Shown: in pieces, positions 11,054-23,530 of the stretch
How the letters are laid out: each line of letters starts with the position of its first letter
How positions within the stretch are numbered: the first letter of the stretch is position 1
Assembly: GCA_050011535.1 (NCBI GenBank)
Contig: JBEKIX010000003.1
Span: 37,976-101,975 of the forward strand
Direction of reading: 5' to 3'
DNA: 64,000 nt
DNA from: Acidobacteriota bacterium
GTDB lineage: Bacteria; Acidobacteriota; UBA6911
Translations under genes and position numbers: made by a program
The notes under the pieces: generated by a model
The model's input: only the letters and a program-made list of their open reading frames with translations
Told to the model about the DNA's origin: nothing
The model's database searches: none

Positions 11054-11138
11054 TGGTGCGAAAGGGGGGAGTTGAACCCCCACCCCTTGCGGGACTGGAT
11101 CCTAAGTCCAGCGCGTCTGCCAATTCCGCCACTTTCGC
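11054..11138 (-). tRNA. tRNA-Leu (anticodon TAG)
   Basis: Hand-folded cloverleaf on the minus strand. Acceptor GCGAAAG/CTTTCGC plus ACCA, anticodon stem CTGGA/TCCAG with loop CTTAGGA, long variable arm TCCCGCAAGGGGT, and T-arm GGGGG-TTCAACT-CCCCC. Confidence 0.9.
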
Positions 11139-18033: not shown

Positions 18034-19524
18034 ATGAGGGTAAATCGTGATTGGAAGCCGCAAAACTTTTCGCGGGAATCAGGCTTTGCGCTCCTGATTG
18101 CGTTGATTGCGCTCGCGCTGCTTTCAGTCCTTGGACTGTACCTCAGCCTGGCGGCAACGGCGGAAGTCCGCATCAGCGACAACTATGAAAGTTATGTACA
18201 GGCGCGTGCCGCGGCACTGGCAGGTTTGAGTCACGCGCGCGCGCTCATGAGGGGTCTCCGCTTCGACGATCTTCTGCAAGGACCAGACGGGGAGCATGAC
18301 ATGAGCGCCGGTTACCTTGCCCACGCCAGAACTGCGGCGAGTCGTACTCCGATCGATTGGACCGTGGCCAGGATGCTCGATATCCAGGATCCCAGCGCGA
18401 TGCTGGCGGGCCTTGCCGACGATGGAACCATGAGCACGGGCGAAAACGCGGCCGGCAACGGGGTGGAATTAATCCCGCGTTTCGGCATTGCGCAAGCAGT
18501 GAAAAACCCGTACGGCGTCGGCACCGTGGTGGTTAGCAGATACTTTGTCAAGGTGTCCGACAACAACGGCGAAGCAAGCGAAATCGCCTCGGATCCCGCT
18601 AATGATCCGTTCCACGACGGTGACGGCCAGATCATCGTGCGCTCGATGGGAGTTGCCCAAACGTTCAGGGAAGAAACCCAGAGTGGGGCGCGCAAAAACT
18701 CGCTGGTGGTCTTCGAAGCGAGATTCAAACACATGTCCATGTTCGAACTCGATTCACCCCTGGTGGTGCAGGGGACGGGCGTCGAGTCTTCCTCGGCGGA
18801 TATGTTCGTCGGCAGTCTTTTCTCGATCCAGGGTGGCGCCGCCAGCTATGGAATCTCGACGATTGACACGAATAACAGTGACGGCGTTTTCCCCGCCCAG
18901 CAGGTCACTGCACATCTCACTGTACAGCAGGGGCAGAACATTCAGGGCACAGGGAAACAACCTTCCGTTCTCGACATCACCTCCACAATCAGCACGAACG
19001 CGGATAAGAAACTTCTCCTGGACGGGGCATACGTCTCGAATTTCATGGCACAAACCGTCCCGCGATTCGCCGACTCCACATATTTCGGATCTCAGACGTG
19101 GATGGGCGCAGCCCCGGCGCAGCTAGGCCATTATGATCCCTTTCAACCGCAGAACGCTCCGGGTCAGACTCCCAAAATGACTTACGTGAATGGCGATCTC
19201 TCCGTGGACGGAAACCTCGACGGAGCCGGCCTGCTCGTGGTCACGGGGAAATTCACTGCCACAGGTAACTTCACATTTTGCGGCCTTATTCTGGTAATTG
19301 GCTCAGGAGAACTCGACATCGGCGGGACGTGCCACGTGACCGGAGCTGTCTATGTCGCGCGTCTGTCCGGTATGGGGGCTGGCGCGAGTTGGGGTGTATC
19401 GAAACTGACTGTCAAGGACAACATCCGCCTCGATTACGATAAAGAAGCGGTCAAAATGGCAGTAAGTTTGTTGCCGCCTCTTCAACTGAGTTTTCGCGAA
19501 ATCACAAGCATCATCGACCCGTAA
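18034..19524 (+). CDS. PilX-N-terminal-domain (pseudopilin-like) secreted protein
   Basis: The ATG at 18034 has AGGAGA 6 nt upstream. N-terminus ESGFALLIALIALALLSVLGLYLSLAATAEVRISDNYESYVQARAAALAGL matches the PilX_N hydrophobic helix pattern. C-terminal GDLSVDGNLDGAGLLVVTGKFTATGNFTFCGLILVIG is typical of this family. Confidence 0.6.
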   Translation: MRVNRDWKPQNFSRESGFALLIALIALALLSVLGLYLSLAATAEVRISDNYESYVQARAAALAGLSHARALMRGLRFDDLLQGPDGEHDMSAGYLAHARTAASRTPIDWTVARMLDIQDPSAMLAGLADDGTMSTGENAAGNGVELIPRFGIAQAVKNPYGVGTVVVSRYFVKVSDNNGEASEIASDPANDPFHDGDGQIIVRSMGVAQTFREETQSGARKNSLVVFEARFKHMSMFELDSPLVVQGTGVESSSADMFVGSLFSIQGGAASYGISTIDTNNSDGVFPAQQVTAHLTVQQGQNIQGTGKQPSVLDITSTISTNADKKLLLDGAYVSNFMAQTVPRFADSTYFGSQTWMGAAPAQLGHYDPFQPQNAPGQTPKMTYVNGDLSVDGNLDGAGLLVVTGKFTATGNFTFCGLILVIGSGELDIGGTCHVTGAVYVARLSGMGAGASWGVSKLTVKDNIRLDYDKEAVKMAVSLLPPLQLSFREITSIIDP

Positions 19525-19620
19525 ACCTTCCGCTTCCGCGGTGCGGAACCTCATGGACCGTTGTGAAATCGTGCTCAAGACCCCTGGCGCTCTGACAATT
19601 GGACCTTACTCGCCCAACCT

Positions 19621-20199
19621 ATGCAGACAGAACTTGCACCATCGACACCCGATCAGCTTGCCATGCCAGTGGAGCTGATTGAGCGCCGCATTTGCCTCAT
19701 TCGGGGTCAGAAGGTGATGCTTGACCGTGACCTCGCCCAGCTTTATGGAGTTGAAACTAAGGCGCTCAATCAGGCTGTGAAACGGAATCAAGACCGCTTC
19801 CCAGACGACTTTATGTTTCAGTTGACTGCCCAGGAGGCTAAACTTTTGAGGATCCATTTTGGCACCTCAAACTTGGAATCACAAAGTGGCGCCTCAAAAC
19901 CTGGTCGTGGCGGCCGGCGGTATCTTGCTTACGCTTTTACGGAGCAAGGCGTGGCCATGCTTTCAAGCGTTCTCAACAGCAAGCGCGCCGTCCAGGTCAA
20001 CATCGCCATCATGCGGACGTTTGTCAGACTGCGCGAACTTCTTGCCACGCACAAGGACTTAGCCCGCAAGCTTGCCGCCATGGAAGATAAGTACGACGCT
20101 CAGTTCAAGGTAGTCTTTGATGCAATCCGAAATCTCATGACACCGGCGCCCCTTCCTCCAAAACGGCAAATCGGATTTGCACCTCCCGAAGAAAAGTGA
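19621..20199 (+). CDS. ORF6N (KilA-N-related) domain DNA-binding protein, paralog 1
   Basis: 192-aa [89 protein letters not shown]. Confidence 0.85.
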
Positions 20200-20204
20200 T
20201 CCAA

Positions 20205-20233
20205 GTTTGAGGTCACAATTTGCGACCTCAAAC
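20205..20233. repeat. Free-standing copy of the ORF6N-internal palindrome, inside a decayed ORF6N remnant (~20203-20340)
   Basis: GTTTGAGGTCACAA-t-TTGCGACCTCAAAC (13/14 arm match), 5 nt after the stop of paralog 1. It translates as LRSQFATSN, the conserved ORF6N motif, but the flanking frame has no ORF6N continuation. Confidence 0.6.
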
Positions 20234-20349
20234 AGCAGTTTGGCCCTTTTGCGTACCTACGGGACGCTGGGAAAACAGCCCGGCACTTCAGTGCCGGGAT
20301 TCTGCATCAGGTTGCTGAATCAGCGCGTTCTGATCTAAGACTCTGCCCA

Positions 20350-20910
20350 ATGCCGAAGCAAGAATCTCAACACAGGTCATCCCACATTCTGATCCCCGTC
20401 GAAACTATCGCGGACGAGATTTATTTGATCCGCAGCCAGAAGGTTATGCTTGATGCTGATCTCGCCAAGCTCTACGGCGTCTCGACGAGGCGTCTCAATG
20501 AGCAGATCCGCCGCAACCGTGACCGTTTCCCTGAAGATTTTGCTTTTGTGCTCTCGTCGGAGGAGTTCGCAAACTTGATGTCGCAAAATGCGACATCAAG
20601 TTTGGGTTGGGGCGGGCGCCGCAAACTACCATACGCTTTTACTGAACACGGGGCGATCATGGCTGCGAATGTCCTTAGCAGTCCCATTGCCGTTGGCGCT
20701 AGCATCCAGGTCGTTCGTGCATTCGTCAGGCTTCGAGAGCTCCTGGCAACTCACAAGGATCTGGCCCGCAAACTCGAGGACTTGGAGCGGAAGTACTCTG
20801 CCCATGACGTCCGAATTCAAGAGATTTTTTCCTGCATCAAGAAGCTCATGACCCCGGCCTGCTCACGACGCCACCTGATTGGCTTTGTGGTTCCCAAAGG
20901 CAAGAAGTAG
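20350..20910 (+). CDS. ORF6N (KilA-N-related) domain DNA-binding protein, paralog 2
   Basis: 186-aa ORF. IRSQKVMLDADLAKLYGVSTRRLNEQIRRNRDRFPEDFAFVLS, GGRRKLPYAFTEHGAIMAANVLSSPIAV, and the C-terminal [15 protein letters not shown] shared with paralog 1. Confidence 0.85.
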   Translation: MPKQESQHRSSHILIPVETIADEIYLIRSQKVMLDADLAKLYGVSTRRLNEQIRRNRDRFPEDFAFVLSSEEFANLMSQNATSSLGWGGRRKLPYAFTEHGAIMAANVLSSPIAVGASIQVVRAFVRLRELLATHKDLARKLEDLERKYSAHDVRIQEIFSCIKKLMTPACSRRHLIGFVVPKGKK

Positions 20911-21056
20911 TCCGCAGCACTTCCTTGATCATTAAGACAAAATGTTTGCCCGTTTTCGAGATGGTCCAACGTCTCTAAACTGATAGGCCCGCCGGATCTG
21001 TTACCGGGAGTGTGCCTCCCGCACATTGCTGAGGGTTTGACAATTCCGGGAGTGAC

Positions 21057-21563
21057 TCAGGGAGTTTCTTCGCCACCCGCAAGGACGCGCTTAGCCGATG
21101 CCACAGCTGAGGCGGCATCGGTAGTGATCTCGAGTATTGAAGAACTCATCGCCGCAAAAACGTGAACAACATCCTCGGGCTGGCAAACGAGGATTGCCGG
21201 TTGCTTGTACTTCAGCGCAAGAGCCAGCTCGGATGCGGTTCCGGCACTCATGCCAACGAAGAATAATACCTGGCTGGAAAGGACATTGATGTTGTTGCGC
21301 GCATCGTTCATGCCGGTAATGATCGGGATGTCGACCGCAGCCGACATTTCTTCATCATCTATTCCCGGAAGGATCCCGACAACCATGCCTTGTGCAGACT
21401 TGGCGCCGCGACTGGCAGCATCCATGACTCCGACTCGCCGCCCTCCCGTGACGAGGATCCAGCCCTGTTGCGCAATCAATCTACCAAGTTCATAGGCTAA
21501 GCGGATGTCATCGTCCGTAGCGCCCTCTCCGGGCCCCATCACCCCGACAAGCGTCTTGCTCAT
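21057..21563 (-). CDS. TIGR00725-type / LOG-SLOG superfamily Rossmann protein
   Basis: 168-aa ORF. VGVMGPGEGAT...GWILVTGGRRVGVMDAASRGAKSAQGMVVGILPG, then PIITGMNDARNNINV..., is the pattern of the TIGR00725/LOG-like family. Confidence 0.75.
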   Translation of the reverse strand: MSKTLVGVMGPGEGATDDDIRLAYELGRLIAQQGWILVTGGRRVGVMDAASRGAKSAQGMVVGILPGIDDEEMSAAVDIPIITGMNDARNNINVLSSQVLFFVGMSAGTASELALALKYKQPAILVCQPEDVVHVFAAMSSSILEITTDAASAVASAKRVLAGGEETP

Positions 21564-21714
21564 TGTATGCTCCGCAACTCAATAAAATTATTAAAACACC
21601 CCAAGCTGAAAGGCGCCTTTCATCCTCCTTTAAAGGACTCATCCCCACATTGAACAACTATTCTAGACGGTCCGACCCCGACCTCGCCCCGCAAGTAATC
21701 CTTCGCGCGCTGGA

Positions 21715-21915
21715 TCATCGATCCGGCACAATCTCCTTCACGCGGCCCACTTCTCCACTCGCAAGGCGCACTTTGATACCGTGCGGGTGGGTGGCGGAGT
21801 TGGTCAGAATGGTCTGAACGATTCCCTCTGCCAATTTCCCGCAGTGCTGGTCCTGCTTTTGGACAATCCGGACGCGTGCTCCGGGCTTAATATCGGACCG
21901 ACATCTACCGTCCAT
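21715..21915 (-). CDS. YwbE family small protein
   Basis: 66-aa ORF. IKPGARVRIVQKQDQHCGKLAEGIVQTILTNSATHPHGIKVRLASGEVGRVKEI closely follows the YwbE/DUF2196 consensus as I recall it. Confidence 0.85.
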   Translation of the reverse strand: MDGRCRSDIKPGARVRIVQKQDQHCGKLAEGIVQTILTNSATHPHGIKVRLASGEVGRVKEIVPDR

Positions 21916-22029
21916 TTATGCCTCTCCCCTTGCAACGGATTTCGACGGAACGGGGTCGAACCACAGCAAGTTGAATCATTGCTCCAAAATAACTCTCCAG
22001 GACTCGCCTGAAATCGGGCACTCCTCTAC

Positions 22030-22190
22030 TTTGCCAACTCTTCCTCGATTGTACGCAACTCGACGCCGGCGGTCATAGGCAATCGTGACCGCTTCCCTGG
22101 GGACTTTATGCTCCGGTTCATCGGAGAGGAAGTGGTTTTTTTGAAGTCGCAATTTGCGACTTCAAGACCTGGGCGTCGCTTGAGCAGGGA
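22030..22190 (+). pseudogene. Decayed third ORF6N gene (frameshifted, truncated)
   Basis: The plus strand reads NRDRFPGDFMLRFIGEEVVFLKSQFATSRPGRR (compare paralog 2 RNRDRFPEDFAFVLSSEEFANLMSQNATSSLGWGGRR). The upstream part (..LPRLYATRRRR..) is in another frame. There is no N-terminal or C-terminal continuation. Confidence 0.55.
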
Positions 22191-22267
22191 ATTGACAGCT
22201 CTGACCGACATTGCTATGCTCGCTTTGGATGTCGGAAATTCCGACTTTCAGAATTAACGGAGTTTTT

Positions 22268-22621
22268 ATGCCTCTTGTCAAAATGCAAAAGAAAGGCCAG
22301 CTTACCCTGCCCAGCCAAATCCGCAAGCGCCTAGGTTTGGCAGAAGGGGACTTTGTGGATGTGAAGATTCGCGCTGCTCATATTGTGGTTACTCCCCAAG
22401 TGGTGATCGACCGCTCAAAGTTTCCAACCGCTGACGATGAGTACACACCGGAGCAGCGGCGCATTATAGACGCGCGCTTGGCCAAGTCCGAGGAAGATCT
22501 CAAAAAGGGGCGCGTTTATGGTCCATTCGAGACTCATAAGGAGATGATGAAGTTTCTCCACAGCCAGACGAAGAAGGTCAAAGAGAAGGTTAAGACTAAG
22601 TTTCGGGGACAGGCGCCATAA
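22268..22621 (+). CDS. AbrB/MazE/SpoVT-type DNA-binding (antitoxin-like) protein, copy 1
   Basis: ATG at 22268. MPLVKMQKKGQLTLPSQIRKRLGLAEGDFVDVKI..HIVVTP is a SpoVT-AbrB swapped-hairpin motif. The last 7 codons and the stop lie inside the left arm of the 30-bp inverted repeat. Confidence 0.8.
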   Translation: MPLVKMQKKGQLTLPSQIRKRLGLAEGDFVDVKIRAAHIVVTPQVVIDRSKFPTADDEYTPEQRRIIDARLAKSEEDLKKGRVYGPFETHKEMMKFLHSQTKKVKEKVKTKFRGQAP

Positions 22622-22693
22622 CCTCGAAATATCACGGAAAGCATGTTCGTCGAATCGCAAGTAATTTCGAGGTTATGGCGCCTGTCCCCGAAA
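22601..22693. repeat. Perfect 30-bp inverted repeat with 33-nt spacer
   Basis: 22601-22630 TTTCGGGGACAGGCGCCATAACCTCGAAAT and 22664-22693 ATTTCGAGGTTATGGCGCCTGTCCCCGAAA are exact reverse complements. Confidence 0.95.
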
Positions 22694-22720
22694 TTCCCGC
22701 CCGATGAAAGCAGGCATACT

Positions 22721-23029
22721 ATGAGTGTCAGGATTACTCGATCCAACCGCAATGTCTTCCGTGACCTCGGATTCGATCTGGAAGAATCGGAGCACCTCAA
22801 GATCCGAGCGGATCTTATGATTCAGGTTCAGAAACAGATTGCGGCCGGTGGATACAGGCAGGCTGACGTGGCGAAGATGCTGAGCATAACCCAGCCTCGA
22901 GTGAGCGACCTTCTTCGCGGCCGGATCGACTTGTTCAGCACCGACACCCTGATCGACATGCTGGCGTGCCTGGGTGTCAGGGTGCGGCTAACGTTGAAAC
23001 CGACGCGCAGTGCCTGCAGAGTCGCGTGA
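22721..23029 (+). CDS. XRE-family HTH protein (HigA-like antitoxin type), no cognate toxin adjacent
   Basis: The ATG at 22721 gives 102 aa. NVFRDLGFDLEESEHLKIRADLMIQVQKQIAAGGYRQADVAKMLSITQPRVSDLLRGRIDLFSTDTLIDMLACLG matches the HTH_37-type antitoxin pattern. Confidence 0.8.
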   Translation: MSVRITRSNRNVFRDLGFDLEESEHLKIRADLMIQVQKQIAAGGYRQADVAKMLSITQPRVSDLLRGRIDLFSTDTLIDMLACLGVRVRLTLKPTRSACRVA

Positions 23030-23047
23030 TGGAAAGGCGGGAGATCT

Positions 23048-23075
23048 CGGGGACAGGCACCATAACCTCGAAATT
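23048..23075. repeat. Third copy of the 30-bp repeat arm (same orientation as the left arm)
   Basis: TCGGGGACAGGCACCATAACCTCGAAAT has 1 mismatch to 22603-22630 and is inverted relative to 22664-22693, so the XRE gene is bracketed by inverted copies. Confidence 0.9.
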
Positions 23076-23105
23076 CCGACTTTCAGAATTTACGGAGTTT
23101 TTTTT

Positions 23106-23530
23106 ATGGCTCTTGTCAAGATGCAAAAAAAGGCCAGCTTACCCTGCCCAGCCAAATCCGCAGCCGCTTAGATTTGCCGGAAGGGGATCTTGTGGACGTG
23201 AAGATTCGCGCTGCTCATATTGTGGTCACTCCCCAAGTGGTGATCGACCGCTCGAAGTTTCCAGCAGCTGACGACGAGTACACGCCCAAGCAGAGGCGCA
23301 TCATAGAAAGAGATTTGGACACCCACGAAGGGTGCGAAGTGAAAAGTGGGTGTCCAGGTCCTCCTCGGGCTGCTCAGAGGGCAATTCTCCGGGCCTGGTC
23401 GCCGAGGGTGCCGGAAATGCGTGGGGAAGGTCCGAGATGCTCAAAAACGTGTTGCGTCCGCTTTTTCCCTTTCGCGATCACCGAAGAAATGCGACGTAGA
23501 ATTATTTCTCGCTCTTCGTTGGCGTTATGA
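23106..23530 (+). pseudogene. AbrB/MazE-type gene, copy 2, frameshifted in an A7 homopolymer
   Basis: 23071-23305 is a roughly 88% identical (by eye) direct repeat of 22234-22468, including the 5' leader GAAATTCCGACTTTCAGAATT.ACGGAG. Copy 2 reads ATGCAAAAAAAGG versus ATGCAAAAGAAAGG, a 1-nt loss that leads to an in-frame TAG. The rest of the domain continues in the frame of ORF 23174..23530. Confidence 0.6.

Follow-up and report, generated by a model that had tools for sequence, protein, structure and literature searches.

A palindrome within ORF6N genes is maintained at the level of nucleotides and may be a DNA site for the encoded protein

Why do ORF6N genes carry a palindrome at exactly the codons of their signature peptide? 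The question is raised by the window examined here, a stretch of 64,000 nucleotides (nt) from the Acidobacteriota contig JBEKIX010000003.1, in which two intact ORF6N genes and an ORF6N pseudogene fragment each contain such a palindrome, with a further copy between the two genes. A first-pass annotation had attributed the palindromes to selection on nucleotide self-complementarity, not on the peptide. Family-wide, this holds: the palindrome is an element of ORF6N genes that is kept self-complementary by selection on nucleotides. The family is large (32,353 clusters at 50% identity with E ≤ 1e-3, and 16,296 with E ≤ 1e-10) and is found in phages, plasmids and defence islands. The palindrome offers a concrete, mutable cis element as a handle for experiments on what these proteins do.

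The consensus element, TTGAGGTCGCAA-W-TTGCGACCTCAA, consists of two 13-nt arms that flank an A or T. The conserved centre, T-C-R-C-A-A-N-T-T-G-Y-G-A, is retained in non-coding copies across phyla. The sample comprises 80 ORF6N loci, one genome per species, that were retrieved by peptide patterns outside the motif and come from Acidobacteriota, Planctomycetota, Proteobacteria, Bacteroidota, Verrucomicrobiota, Nitrospirota, Omnitrophota and other phyla; a further 80 loci were taken from viral contigs. Nearly all sampled ORF6N genes have the palindrome at the identical position in the gene, and this position is fixed across about 16,000 protein clusters.

In principle, a palindrome of this kind might be an accident of the codons for LRSQFATS, given that no other stretch of the Pfam domain is conserved as well as this motif. 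Watson–Crick pairing was therefore scored at arm offsets 2–13 (12 positions) in 136 non-identical ORF6N genes and compared with a codon null, in which identical peptides were resampled with each gene's own codon usage (27,200 resamples). The genes pair at 10.97 of the 12 positions, against 4.56 ± 1.69 after resampling, and the highest value among all resamples is 11. The best other palindrome in the same genes reaches a mean of 8.06 paired positions. Codon choice at the site also differs sharply from that for the same amino acids elsewhere in these genes. Leu is encoded by TTG in 99 of 109 cases (19% elsewhere), Gln by CAA in 122 of 124 (46%), Phe by TTT in 56 of 56 (55%), Ile by ATT in 47 of 47 (35%), Ser by TCA in 100 of 106 (12%) and Arg by AGR in 51 of 56 (22%). 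Because of the resampling gap and this site-specific codon use, together with genes that read the core in a shifted frame and copies that are not coding at all (see below), peptide conservation combined with codon bias is ruled out as the cause, with next to no probability left to it. The first-pass annotation had named two ways in which its argument might fail, namely that the palindrome is just the favoured codon choice or that the copies in the window are recent duplicates of one another. The first is answered by the resampling. As to the second, the proteins of gene 1 and gene 2 are only 51% identical and the arms of the copies differ.

The unifying point is that nucleotides outrank the peptide at this site, because compensation alters amino acids, because genes with a +1 frame keep the core, and because the protein loop concerned tolerates repeats. 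Ala→Val (GCG→GTG) is always coupled to TCG→TCA four codons upstream, Ser→Leu (TCG→TTG) to GCG→GCA, Thr→Ile to AGG→AGA, and Leu→Trp (TTG→TGG) to TCA→TCC; in L027, Phe-Gly stands in place of Ser-Ala and the palindrome is perfect. Five genes (L032, L037, L044, L067 and the third gene of L034) have the core GGTCGCAA-N-TTGCGACC in the +1 frame, where it is translated as V-V-A-N-C-D-H-L. In the AlphaFold2 model of the gene 2 protein, which has a mean predicted local distance difference test score (pLDDT) of 76, the motif spans the end of helix 70–79 and a loop whose residues 81–85 score under 50. The model thus places the site in a structurally permissive segment (helix end plus loop) of a predicted winged-helix-like domain. 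The loop holds one to six tandem units in other members, with periods of 27, 36, 42, 45 and 54 nt. L299 (762–1014) has six in-frame units and P0265 four units of nine amino acids, and the arms differ from unit to unit.

The signature peptide of the ORF6N domain hence appears to be imposed by the DNA palindrome, which changes how alignments of this domain should be read. It had been thought that every copy in the window encodes L-[R/K/M]-S-Q-[F/N]-A-T-S, and gene 1, with LRIHFGTS, is at odds with that. More generally, the element provides a clean case of nucleotide-level selection overriding amino acids, and as such can help to tell apart the constraints that structure and protein each place on coding DNA. 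Two observations on individual loci may be added. L299, P0242 and P0265 have four to six tandem palindrome units (27-, 45- or 54-nt period), with the protein loop enlarged accordingly. In L024 (position 1696), TAG replaces CAA at the exact centre of the palindrome, and the profile match is split into two open reading frames.

Self-complementarity is maintained while the arms change. In a gapless alignment of 113 distinct 35-nt sites, both-sided change occurs at 13 of 15 pairs (306 cells). Paired cells amount to 85%, compared with 68% after shuffling and 28–41% when the partners are slid by 1–3 columns; none of 500 shuffles reaches the observed value, although the sequences are related by descent and this control is not a probability. 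Arm complementarity is solid at offsets 1–13 and fades by offset 16. On a neighbour-joining tree of the proteins without the motif, a parsimony count gives about 140 switches between Watson–Crick pair types, a number that is inflated by error in the tree; 23 fall at ±4, 15 at ±5, 17 at ±7, 20 at ±8 and 25 at ±13. At ±4, the tree has 23 changes in the left arm and 23 in the right, each left change matched by a right one, with no mismatched state. Compensatory changes have clearly been repeated many times over, despite the tree error. The pair types found at ±4 in the 113 in-gene sites are GC (69), AT (32) and CG (12), and mixed G/A half-sites occur in none of them.

The covariation first noticed in the window, between the second base of the Arg/Met/Lys codon and the third base of the Thr codon, is indeed seen across the family (GC 53, TA 17, AT 10, CG 3), but it is not strict, as 30 of the 113 sites are unpaired there. 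Even the core can differ: a subfamily on Segatella plasmids has palindromes of 10/12 and 12/12 at the same position with a different core (GGTGGTCGAAATTTTCGACCAC, GAGGTTATCAAAAAATTTGATAACCTC).

In the window itself, the four palindromes reported by the first-pass annotation are all present where it had placed them (Table 1). Three have the arm lengths that it listed, and that of gene 2 is longer, with 16/16 paired positions and a 3-nt loop in place of 13/13. The 64 kb contain about 14 unrelated palindromes of at least 10/12, and only four or five copies belong to a single sequence family and occupy a single position relative to the ORF6N motif; every one of these is ORF6N-linked. The site of gene 2 is intact. 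In gene 1 the internal site has decayed, with a good copy just after the stop codon, and the copy in the pseudogene is perfect. Folding as DNA gives −19.8 kcal/mol (z −8.7) for the gene 2 palindrome and −11.8 kcal/mol (z −6.9) for the pseudogene copy at 22141–22165; for the copy at 20205–20233, the values are −9.9 kcal/mol on the plus strand (z −5.2) and −12.1 kcal/mol on the minus strand (z −6.8). Next to the palindrome of gene 1, the duplicate unit at 19872–19898 has lost its self-complementarity and is visible as a nine-residue insertion in the protein alignment. Two relatives, L081 and L082, have 98% DNA identity to the window. Both have kept the pseudogene fragment (blastn), and the palindrome in it is 100% identical in the two.

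Two of the four copies had been interpreted as lying in decayed gene remnants. For 22072–22200 this is correct, since it is an ORF6N fragment, whereas no gene remnant is demonstrable at 20205–20233, an extragenic copy typical of the family within an indel that also contains gene 1. It begins 5 nt past the stop codon of gene 1, with its centre 20 nt past that stop and 131 nt ahead of the start of gene 2; when its surroundings were translated, a protein family search detected no ORF6N similarity outside the palindrome. The copy was gained or lost together with gene 1, because L081 and L082 are without the whole of 19545–20316. In these relatives, 72 unrelated nt take its place (L081 9896–9967), and they contain a TTGACA box. 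Neither a target duplication nor terminal repeats were seen at the junctions of the 772-nt indel. Short 'ORF6N remnants' beside genes are often extragenic palindrome copies of this type, and not decayed genes. The further suggestion that the palindrome is most perfect in dead copies does not stand either: the longest arms belong to the intact gene 2, and perfect 12/12 copies number 49 of 136 within genes and 20 of 46 outside them. The copy centred at 20219 has the same single asymmetry at ±4 as three unrelated viral copies (L276 7693, L279 83 and L283 2542): the left side reads GTCACAA and the right side TTGCGAC, which makes A·C on one strand and G·T on its complement.

Extragenic copies are not confined to the window. 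Among those upstream of genes (n = 54), 22 are 23–54 nt ahead of the estimated start and more are at 63–96 nt; others directly follow stop codons, as in the window, L053 and L065. L018 and L075 have no internal palindrome and carry an upstream copy at 41 and 37 nt, respectively. Local arrays of two to five differing copies are also found. Within a locus, the 7-nt core is common to the extragenic and the in-gene copy in 9 of 43 pairs, with a median of 2 differences per 13 arm bases. Each of these differing copies is still self-complementary, which suggests that pairing outweighs base identity. In three Terriglobia genomes, an invariant 36-nt block containing the palindrome lies 5 nt past the stop codon of the upstream gene, and in the intergenic DNA just past the block the three agree in only a minority of columns. 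An invariant block beside diverged DNA points to purifying selection and not to slow decay.

These data bear on a neutral explanation, according to which the element is a self-perpetuating quasipalindrome: template switching copies one arm onto the other, and a permissive loop tolerates the outcome. Intramolecular template switching, studied by Ripley and by the Lovett laboratory, perfects quasipalindromes at rates far above those of point mutation. The element does lie in a permissive loop, tandem duplication occurs readily, dead and extragenic copies remain perfect, and the mismatches are strand-symmetric and mostly transitions. Unbiased conversion, however, slows no divergence, yet the 36-nt block is invariant in three species and the conserved centre persists in non-coding copies across phyla. 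Nor does it fit with the fixed gene position, with the amino-acid changes accepted for the sake of pairing, or with the upstream copies of genes that have no internal one. As the sole explanation, neutral conversion is therefore regarded as quite improbable.

A second alternative places the hairpin in RNA. In the mRNA or untranslated regions of ORF6N genes, it could affect transcript stability, act as a terminator or attenuator, be a target of RNase III, or bind a protein that controls translation. In favour of this, the stability of the stems is high, and copies located 23–54 nt before starts or just after stops are where hairpins of untranslated regions sit. Some copies in other genomes have T-runs, including phage and Flavobacteriales copies that are followed by them, and in one phage group a mismatch is compatible with G·U in the orientation that the T-run follows. 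The base pairs themselves tell against this. A wobble signal is lacking, and G·U pairs never occur at ±4 in the 113 in-gene sites; mismatches are A·C in 37 and G·T in 14 cases within genes, a count confounded by AAA and AGA codons, and are evenly divided in 46 non-coding upstream copies (GT+TG 14, AC+CA 14). The central base is A in 26 and T in 20 of the non-coding copies, and A in 62 and T in 50 of the genes. With either base the duplex is one and the same site, read from one strand or the other, but the RNA loops are two different ones, and a DNA-level element is therefore favoured. Pairing is also kept at ±1 and ±2, which remain A·T though a hairpin loop needs no pairing there. An intrinsic terminator scan of 19400–22400 returned four sites, none of them at the palindromes (AGCAGTTTGG follows 20233), and searches of Rfam gave no match at the palindromes, either with E up to 1 (19000–23500) or at the gathering score or E up to 0.05 (whole window). 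The element is strand-symmetric and strictly Watson–Crick, which favours DNA over an mRNA hairpin. The RNA processing or termination structure considered earlier gains no support from the wobble and strand-asymmetry tests, and an RNA function is judged unlikely.

What kind of DNA element is it, then? Several known types do not match. A classical duplex operator for a symmetric dimer is unfit, because positions that vary between copies are never mixed between the two halves; variable half-site positions always change together. This lowers the claim of a plain operator, not the claim that a protein binds. Integron attC sites, found at the 3′ end of cassettes beside an intI gene, have at least 55 nt and are imperfect, with R''/L''/L'/R' boxes and extrahelical bases, whereas the present element has 27 nt, is perfect or nearly so, has no bulged bases and is mostly intragenic; intI itself was not searched for. 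A CRISPR array was rejected since the members of arrays differ in sequence and the units of L299 are in-frame coding sequence with a 45- or 54-nt period. REP/BIME elements with a RAYT transposase were set aside as well: the 64 kb hold just the ORF6N-linked copies, and no RAYT gene is among the neighbours. The simplest reading is intrastrand pairing, as a hairpin or cruciform, possibly with template-switch correction.

The association with ORF6N genes extends well beyond the sampled loci. Scanning with a 25-nt family pattern found at least 128 sites in metagenome contigs. Among the matches listed, 87 are in full-length ORF6N genes, 19 are in ORF6N fragments (106 together), 9 more are within 700 nt of an ORF6N gene (one at 772 nt), and 5 are at a contig edge. 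Viral contigs gave 32 sites with this pattern, 13 in ORF6N genes and 4 near one. A 16-base core pattern used in viral contigs was replaced by the 25-nt one. It had returned 101 stretches, 95 of them without an ORF6N gene and many of them ordinary terminators; by a rough estimate, eight specified arm bases are too unspecific among tens of millions of hairpins. Searching cultured phages yielded only four uncultured faecal 'Bacteriophage sp.' records, the E. coli genomes searched for the motif gave no match, and these searches brought up no copy in a model organism. On two Segatella copri plasmids, L406 (NZ_CP152354.1, 2955 bp) and L407 (NZ_CP152486.1, 4140 bp), only a replication initiator and an ORF6N gene are annotated. 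As the 2955-bp plasmid encodes just these two, an ORF6N gene with its internal site may be a self-sufficient unit.

The encoded protein is a plausible binder of the site. Its predicted model combines a winged-helix-like fold with a long C-terminal helix, and a fold search gave weak winged-helix-like matches (a Ski/Dachshund domain with a TM-score of 0.58, and MarR); the Protein Data Bank holds no solved sequence relatives. Both window genes are secure members of the family, with PF10543 scores of 118 bits (gene 1) and 112.9 bits (gene 2) against a gathering cut-off of 27.8.

The reading preferred here, tentatively and with a likelihood somewhat short of even, is that the ORF6N protein recognises the palindrome as a DNA site capable of forming a hairpin or cruciform, and uses it for autoregulation or for assembly on its own locus. 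The palindrome would be DNA that is able to leave the duplex as a hairpin or cruciform. An ORF6N dimer or tetramer, probably formed via the C-terminal coiled coil, would recognise it by its shape and its conserved centre. Autoregulation might then use a promoter-proximal and an intragenic copy about 255–300 bp apart, through a roadblock or looping; alternatively, the protein might assemble on the locus. Being inside the module that encodes the domain, the site would stay linked to its protein whenever the module is shuffled.

This relatively simple picture is complicated by several points that count against it. The link between protein and site rests on co-occurrence. The model of a plain duplex operator leaves the arm covariation unexplained, and stable extrusion of a 27-bp palindrome as a cruciform in vivo is not assured. 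The covariation could be partly mutational, arising through template-switch correction of quasipalindromes, and not selected; the limits of the tree and of the shuffle control given above belong here too. TANNNT, a −10-like sequence, is found beside 11 of 34 upstream copies and on the mirrored side of 6 of 34, a difference that is not significant. Finally, for 8 of the 128 metagenomic sites among the matches listed, the 700 nt to each side showed no ORF6N gene, nor did the stored flank of 15 of the 32 viral sites. L394, which is among the eight, does have a short ORF6N gene that was missed by the length filter.

Because such unlinked copies exist, another factor could read the site, for instance a nuclease of the host or of a phage, or a defence sensor for palindromes or cruciforms, and ORF6N genes would merely carry it. 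Family-type palindromes without a nearby ORF6N gene occur in phages and in chromosomal intergenic regions: between housekeeping genes (mdh/ATP-grasp; peptidase/def), after a methylmalonyl-CoA mutase gene, after a T5orf172 gene and upstream of a phage gp32-like gene. A defence connection is suggested by profile matches, as both window genes correspond to the PADLOC defence candidate PDC-S05 (profile PDLC04856, E 7.5e-54 and 2.5e-53, positions 5–168 of 177). One PDC-S05 representative from a cold seep, which has a RhuM domain and is not the protein of the window, lowered plating of T7 and T5 about 1000-fold (bioRxiv 10.1101/2024.09.26.614923). ORF6N is a candidate anti-phage DNA-binding protein. 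On the other side, the great majority of the listed metagenomic sites are in ORF6N genes or fragments or within 700 nt of one, no other gene family recurs consistently beside the sites, and the neighbours compared near ORF6N-free extragenic copies have no gene family in common. A reader other than ORF6N therefore has a low probability. A phage group (L186, L224, L229, L236, L256 and L263) has the palindrome TTTAAGGTCGCAA-W-TTGCGACCTTAAA followed by a T-run; it sits between a gene for an acidic protein and a gp32-like single-strand-binding gene, and the stored flank is without ORF6N.

A more far-reaching version of the preferred reading is also conceivable, though doubtful. ORF6N proteins might be structure-specific binders of hairpins or cruciforms, with the protein and its in-gene palindrome forming one self-contained module, and extrusion might serve as a switch in anti-phage defence or plasmid maintenance. 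The trigger would be supercoiling, or single-stranded DNA at the entry of a phage or plasmid. If this were true, L-x-S-Q-x-A-T-S would be a by-product of DNA structure, and the palindrome would represent a class of cis element so far undescribed. The literature search found no paper that describes the palindrome or the motif, including in connection with KilA-N, and no prior description of the element was found in Rfam or the literature.

The palindrome has also been considered as a site of recombination or rearrangement, at which crossover for module exchange, inversion or cassette insertion would generate the tandem ORF6N family. It encodes the same peptide on both strands, so that exchange or inversion there preserves the frame. 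Unit duplications of 27–54 nt occur in frame, the profile match of many homologues splits at residues 66–78, gene 1 and its palindrome form the 772-nt indel, and L033 and L034 have tandem ORF6N arrays. The breakpoints, however, lie elsewhere. In four pairs from gut phages, sliding identity delimits an ORF6N module that extends from about −195 to +140 around the palindrome and is roughly 90% identical, between unrelated flanks. Since this identity spans the palindrome, shuffling carries the domain with the palindrome inside, and breaks at the borders of the domain; the proposal that paralogue breakpoints map to the palindrome is not borne out, common as in-frame tandem duplications are. The junctions of the indel in the window (19544/19545 and 20316/20317) are likewise away from any palindrome. 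Rearrangements centred on the site are limited to the in-frame duplications of the unit. Moreover, there is little homology for exchange, because copies within one locus differ in sequence, and no recombinase gene is consistently linked. A recombination site thus seems a remote prospect.

Table 1. ORF6N genes, palindromes and related features of the window (positions in the 64-kb stretch).
Feature	Position	Strand	Evidence
772-nt indel unit (gene 1, extragenic palindrome and G+C-rich hairpin)	19545..20316		blastn vs L081, L082
ORF6N gene 1, 192 amino acids	19621..20199	+	PF10543 E 2.2e-34; PDC-S05 E 6e-56 (PADLOC)
Degenerate in-gene palindrome of gene 1, centre 19858, arms 10/12, encodes L-R-I-H-F-G-T-S	19845..19871		
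Diverged in-frame 27-nt tandem duplicate of the gene 1 palindrome unit, encodes NLESQSGAS	19872..19898		
Extragenic palindrome, centre 20219, arms 13/14, A·C mismatch at ±4	20205..20233		
ORF6N gene 2, 186 amino acids	20350..20910	+	PF10543 E 8.8e-33; PDC-S05 E 2.5e-53
In-gene palindrome of gene 2, centre 20587, arms 16/16, 3-nt loop, encodes N-L-M-S-Q-N-A-T-S-S	20570..20604		
Frameshifted ORF6N pseudogene fragment	22040..22200	+	hmmsearch: 22072-22200 = profile positions 46-89
Perfect palindrome in pseudogene fragment, 12/12, centre 22153	22141..22165		

The surroundings of these features contain other repeats and inverted repeats. Within the gene 1 indel unit, a G+C-rich hairpin, CCCGGCACTGAAGTGCCGGG, lies at 20264–20298 on the minus strand and is followed by CTGTTTT. 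It is also in the output of the terminator scan (minus strand), and its match to the Rfam family Acido-Lenti-1 (RF01687) reaches 27.6 bits on the minus strand, under the gathering score of 37 bits. Downstream of the pseudogene, a gene for a MazE/AbrB-type antitoxin (22268–22621) is preceded by a promoter-like TTGACA-17-TATGCT at 22192–22220 and by a 7-1-7 palindrome, GTCGGAAATTCCGAC (22230–22244). The pseudogene palindrome is 27 nt upstream of the −35 box of this gene. About 240 nt of the MazE/AbrB unit (22192–22621) recur at 23070–23307 with roughly 89% identity. A 30-nt unit, TTTCGGGGACAGGCGCCATAACCTCGAAAT, is present three times (22601–22630, 22664–22693 and 23044–23075); where the MazE-like gene ends, two of its copies are arranged as a perfect inverted repeat separated by 33 nt, and this is the source of a spurious Rfam miRNA match. 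Further away, a tRNA gene with a long variable arm lies at 11057–11138 on the minus strand (Rfam tRNA, 59.8 bits).

How does the element compare with known systems? Quasipalindrome correction accounts for the paired arm changes and for perfect dead copies without selection, and leaves the invariant extragenic block, the conserved centre and the fixed gene position unexplained. Rickettsia palindromic elements are, like the site in ORF6N genes, palindromic DNA that is translated as a surface loop and tolerated at a permissive position. They are mobile and occupy many sites and genes, whereas the ORF6N element has a single ancestral site in one family and is 27 nt long. REP/BIME elements and RAYT resemble it in that short extragenic palindromes cluster after genes beside one associated gene and form arrays of differing copies; here, in contrast, there is no Y1/HUH transposase, the copy number is low, and the main copy is in coding sequence.

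Three further systems combine a site with coding sequence. In lac O2 and gal OI, a promoter-proximal site is paired with a second one a few hundred bp inside a coding region, as with the spacing of about 255–300 bp here. Those operators are defined by sequence, lie in another gene and have no arm covariation. The cruciform of IR-II in pT181 repC and the site in phiX174 gene A share with the ORF6N palindrome an extrudable cis element in the gene of the acting protein. ORF6N proteins differ in being without HUH or Rep motifs, their genes are mostly chromosomal, and the 2955-bp Segatella plasmid has a Rep gene of its own. In Bacillus subtilis, a parS site lies within spo0J/parB, so that a palindrome is located in the gene of its own binder, which reads it as duplex DNA. 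The sequence of parS is conserved, without arm covariation, and ORF6N is not ParB, its binding to the site being putative; the likeness is that of a perfect palindrome in the coding sequence of a DNA-binding protein, with more copies elsewhere and conservation across phyla.

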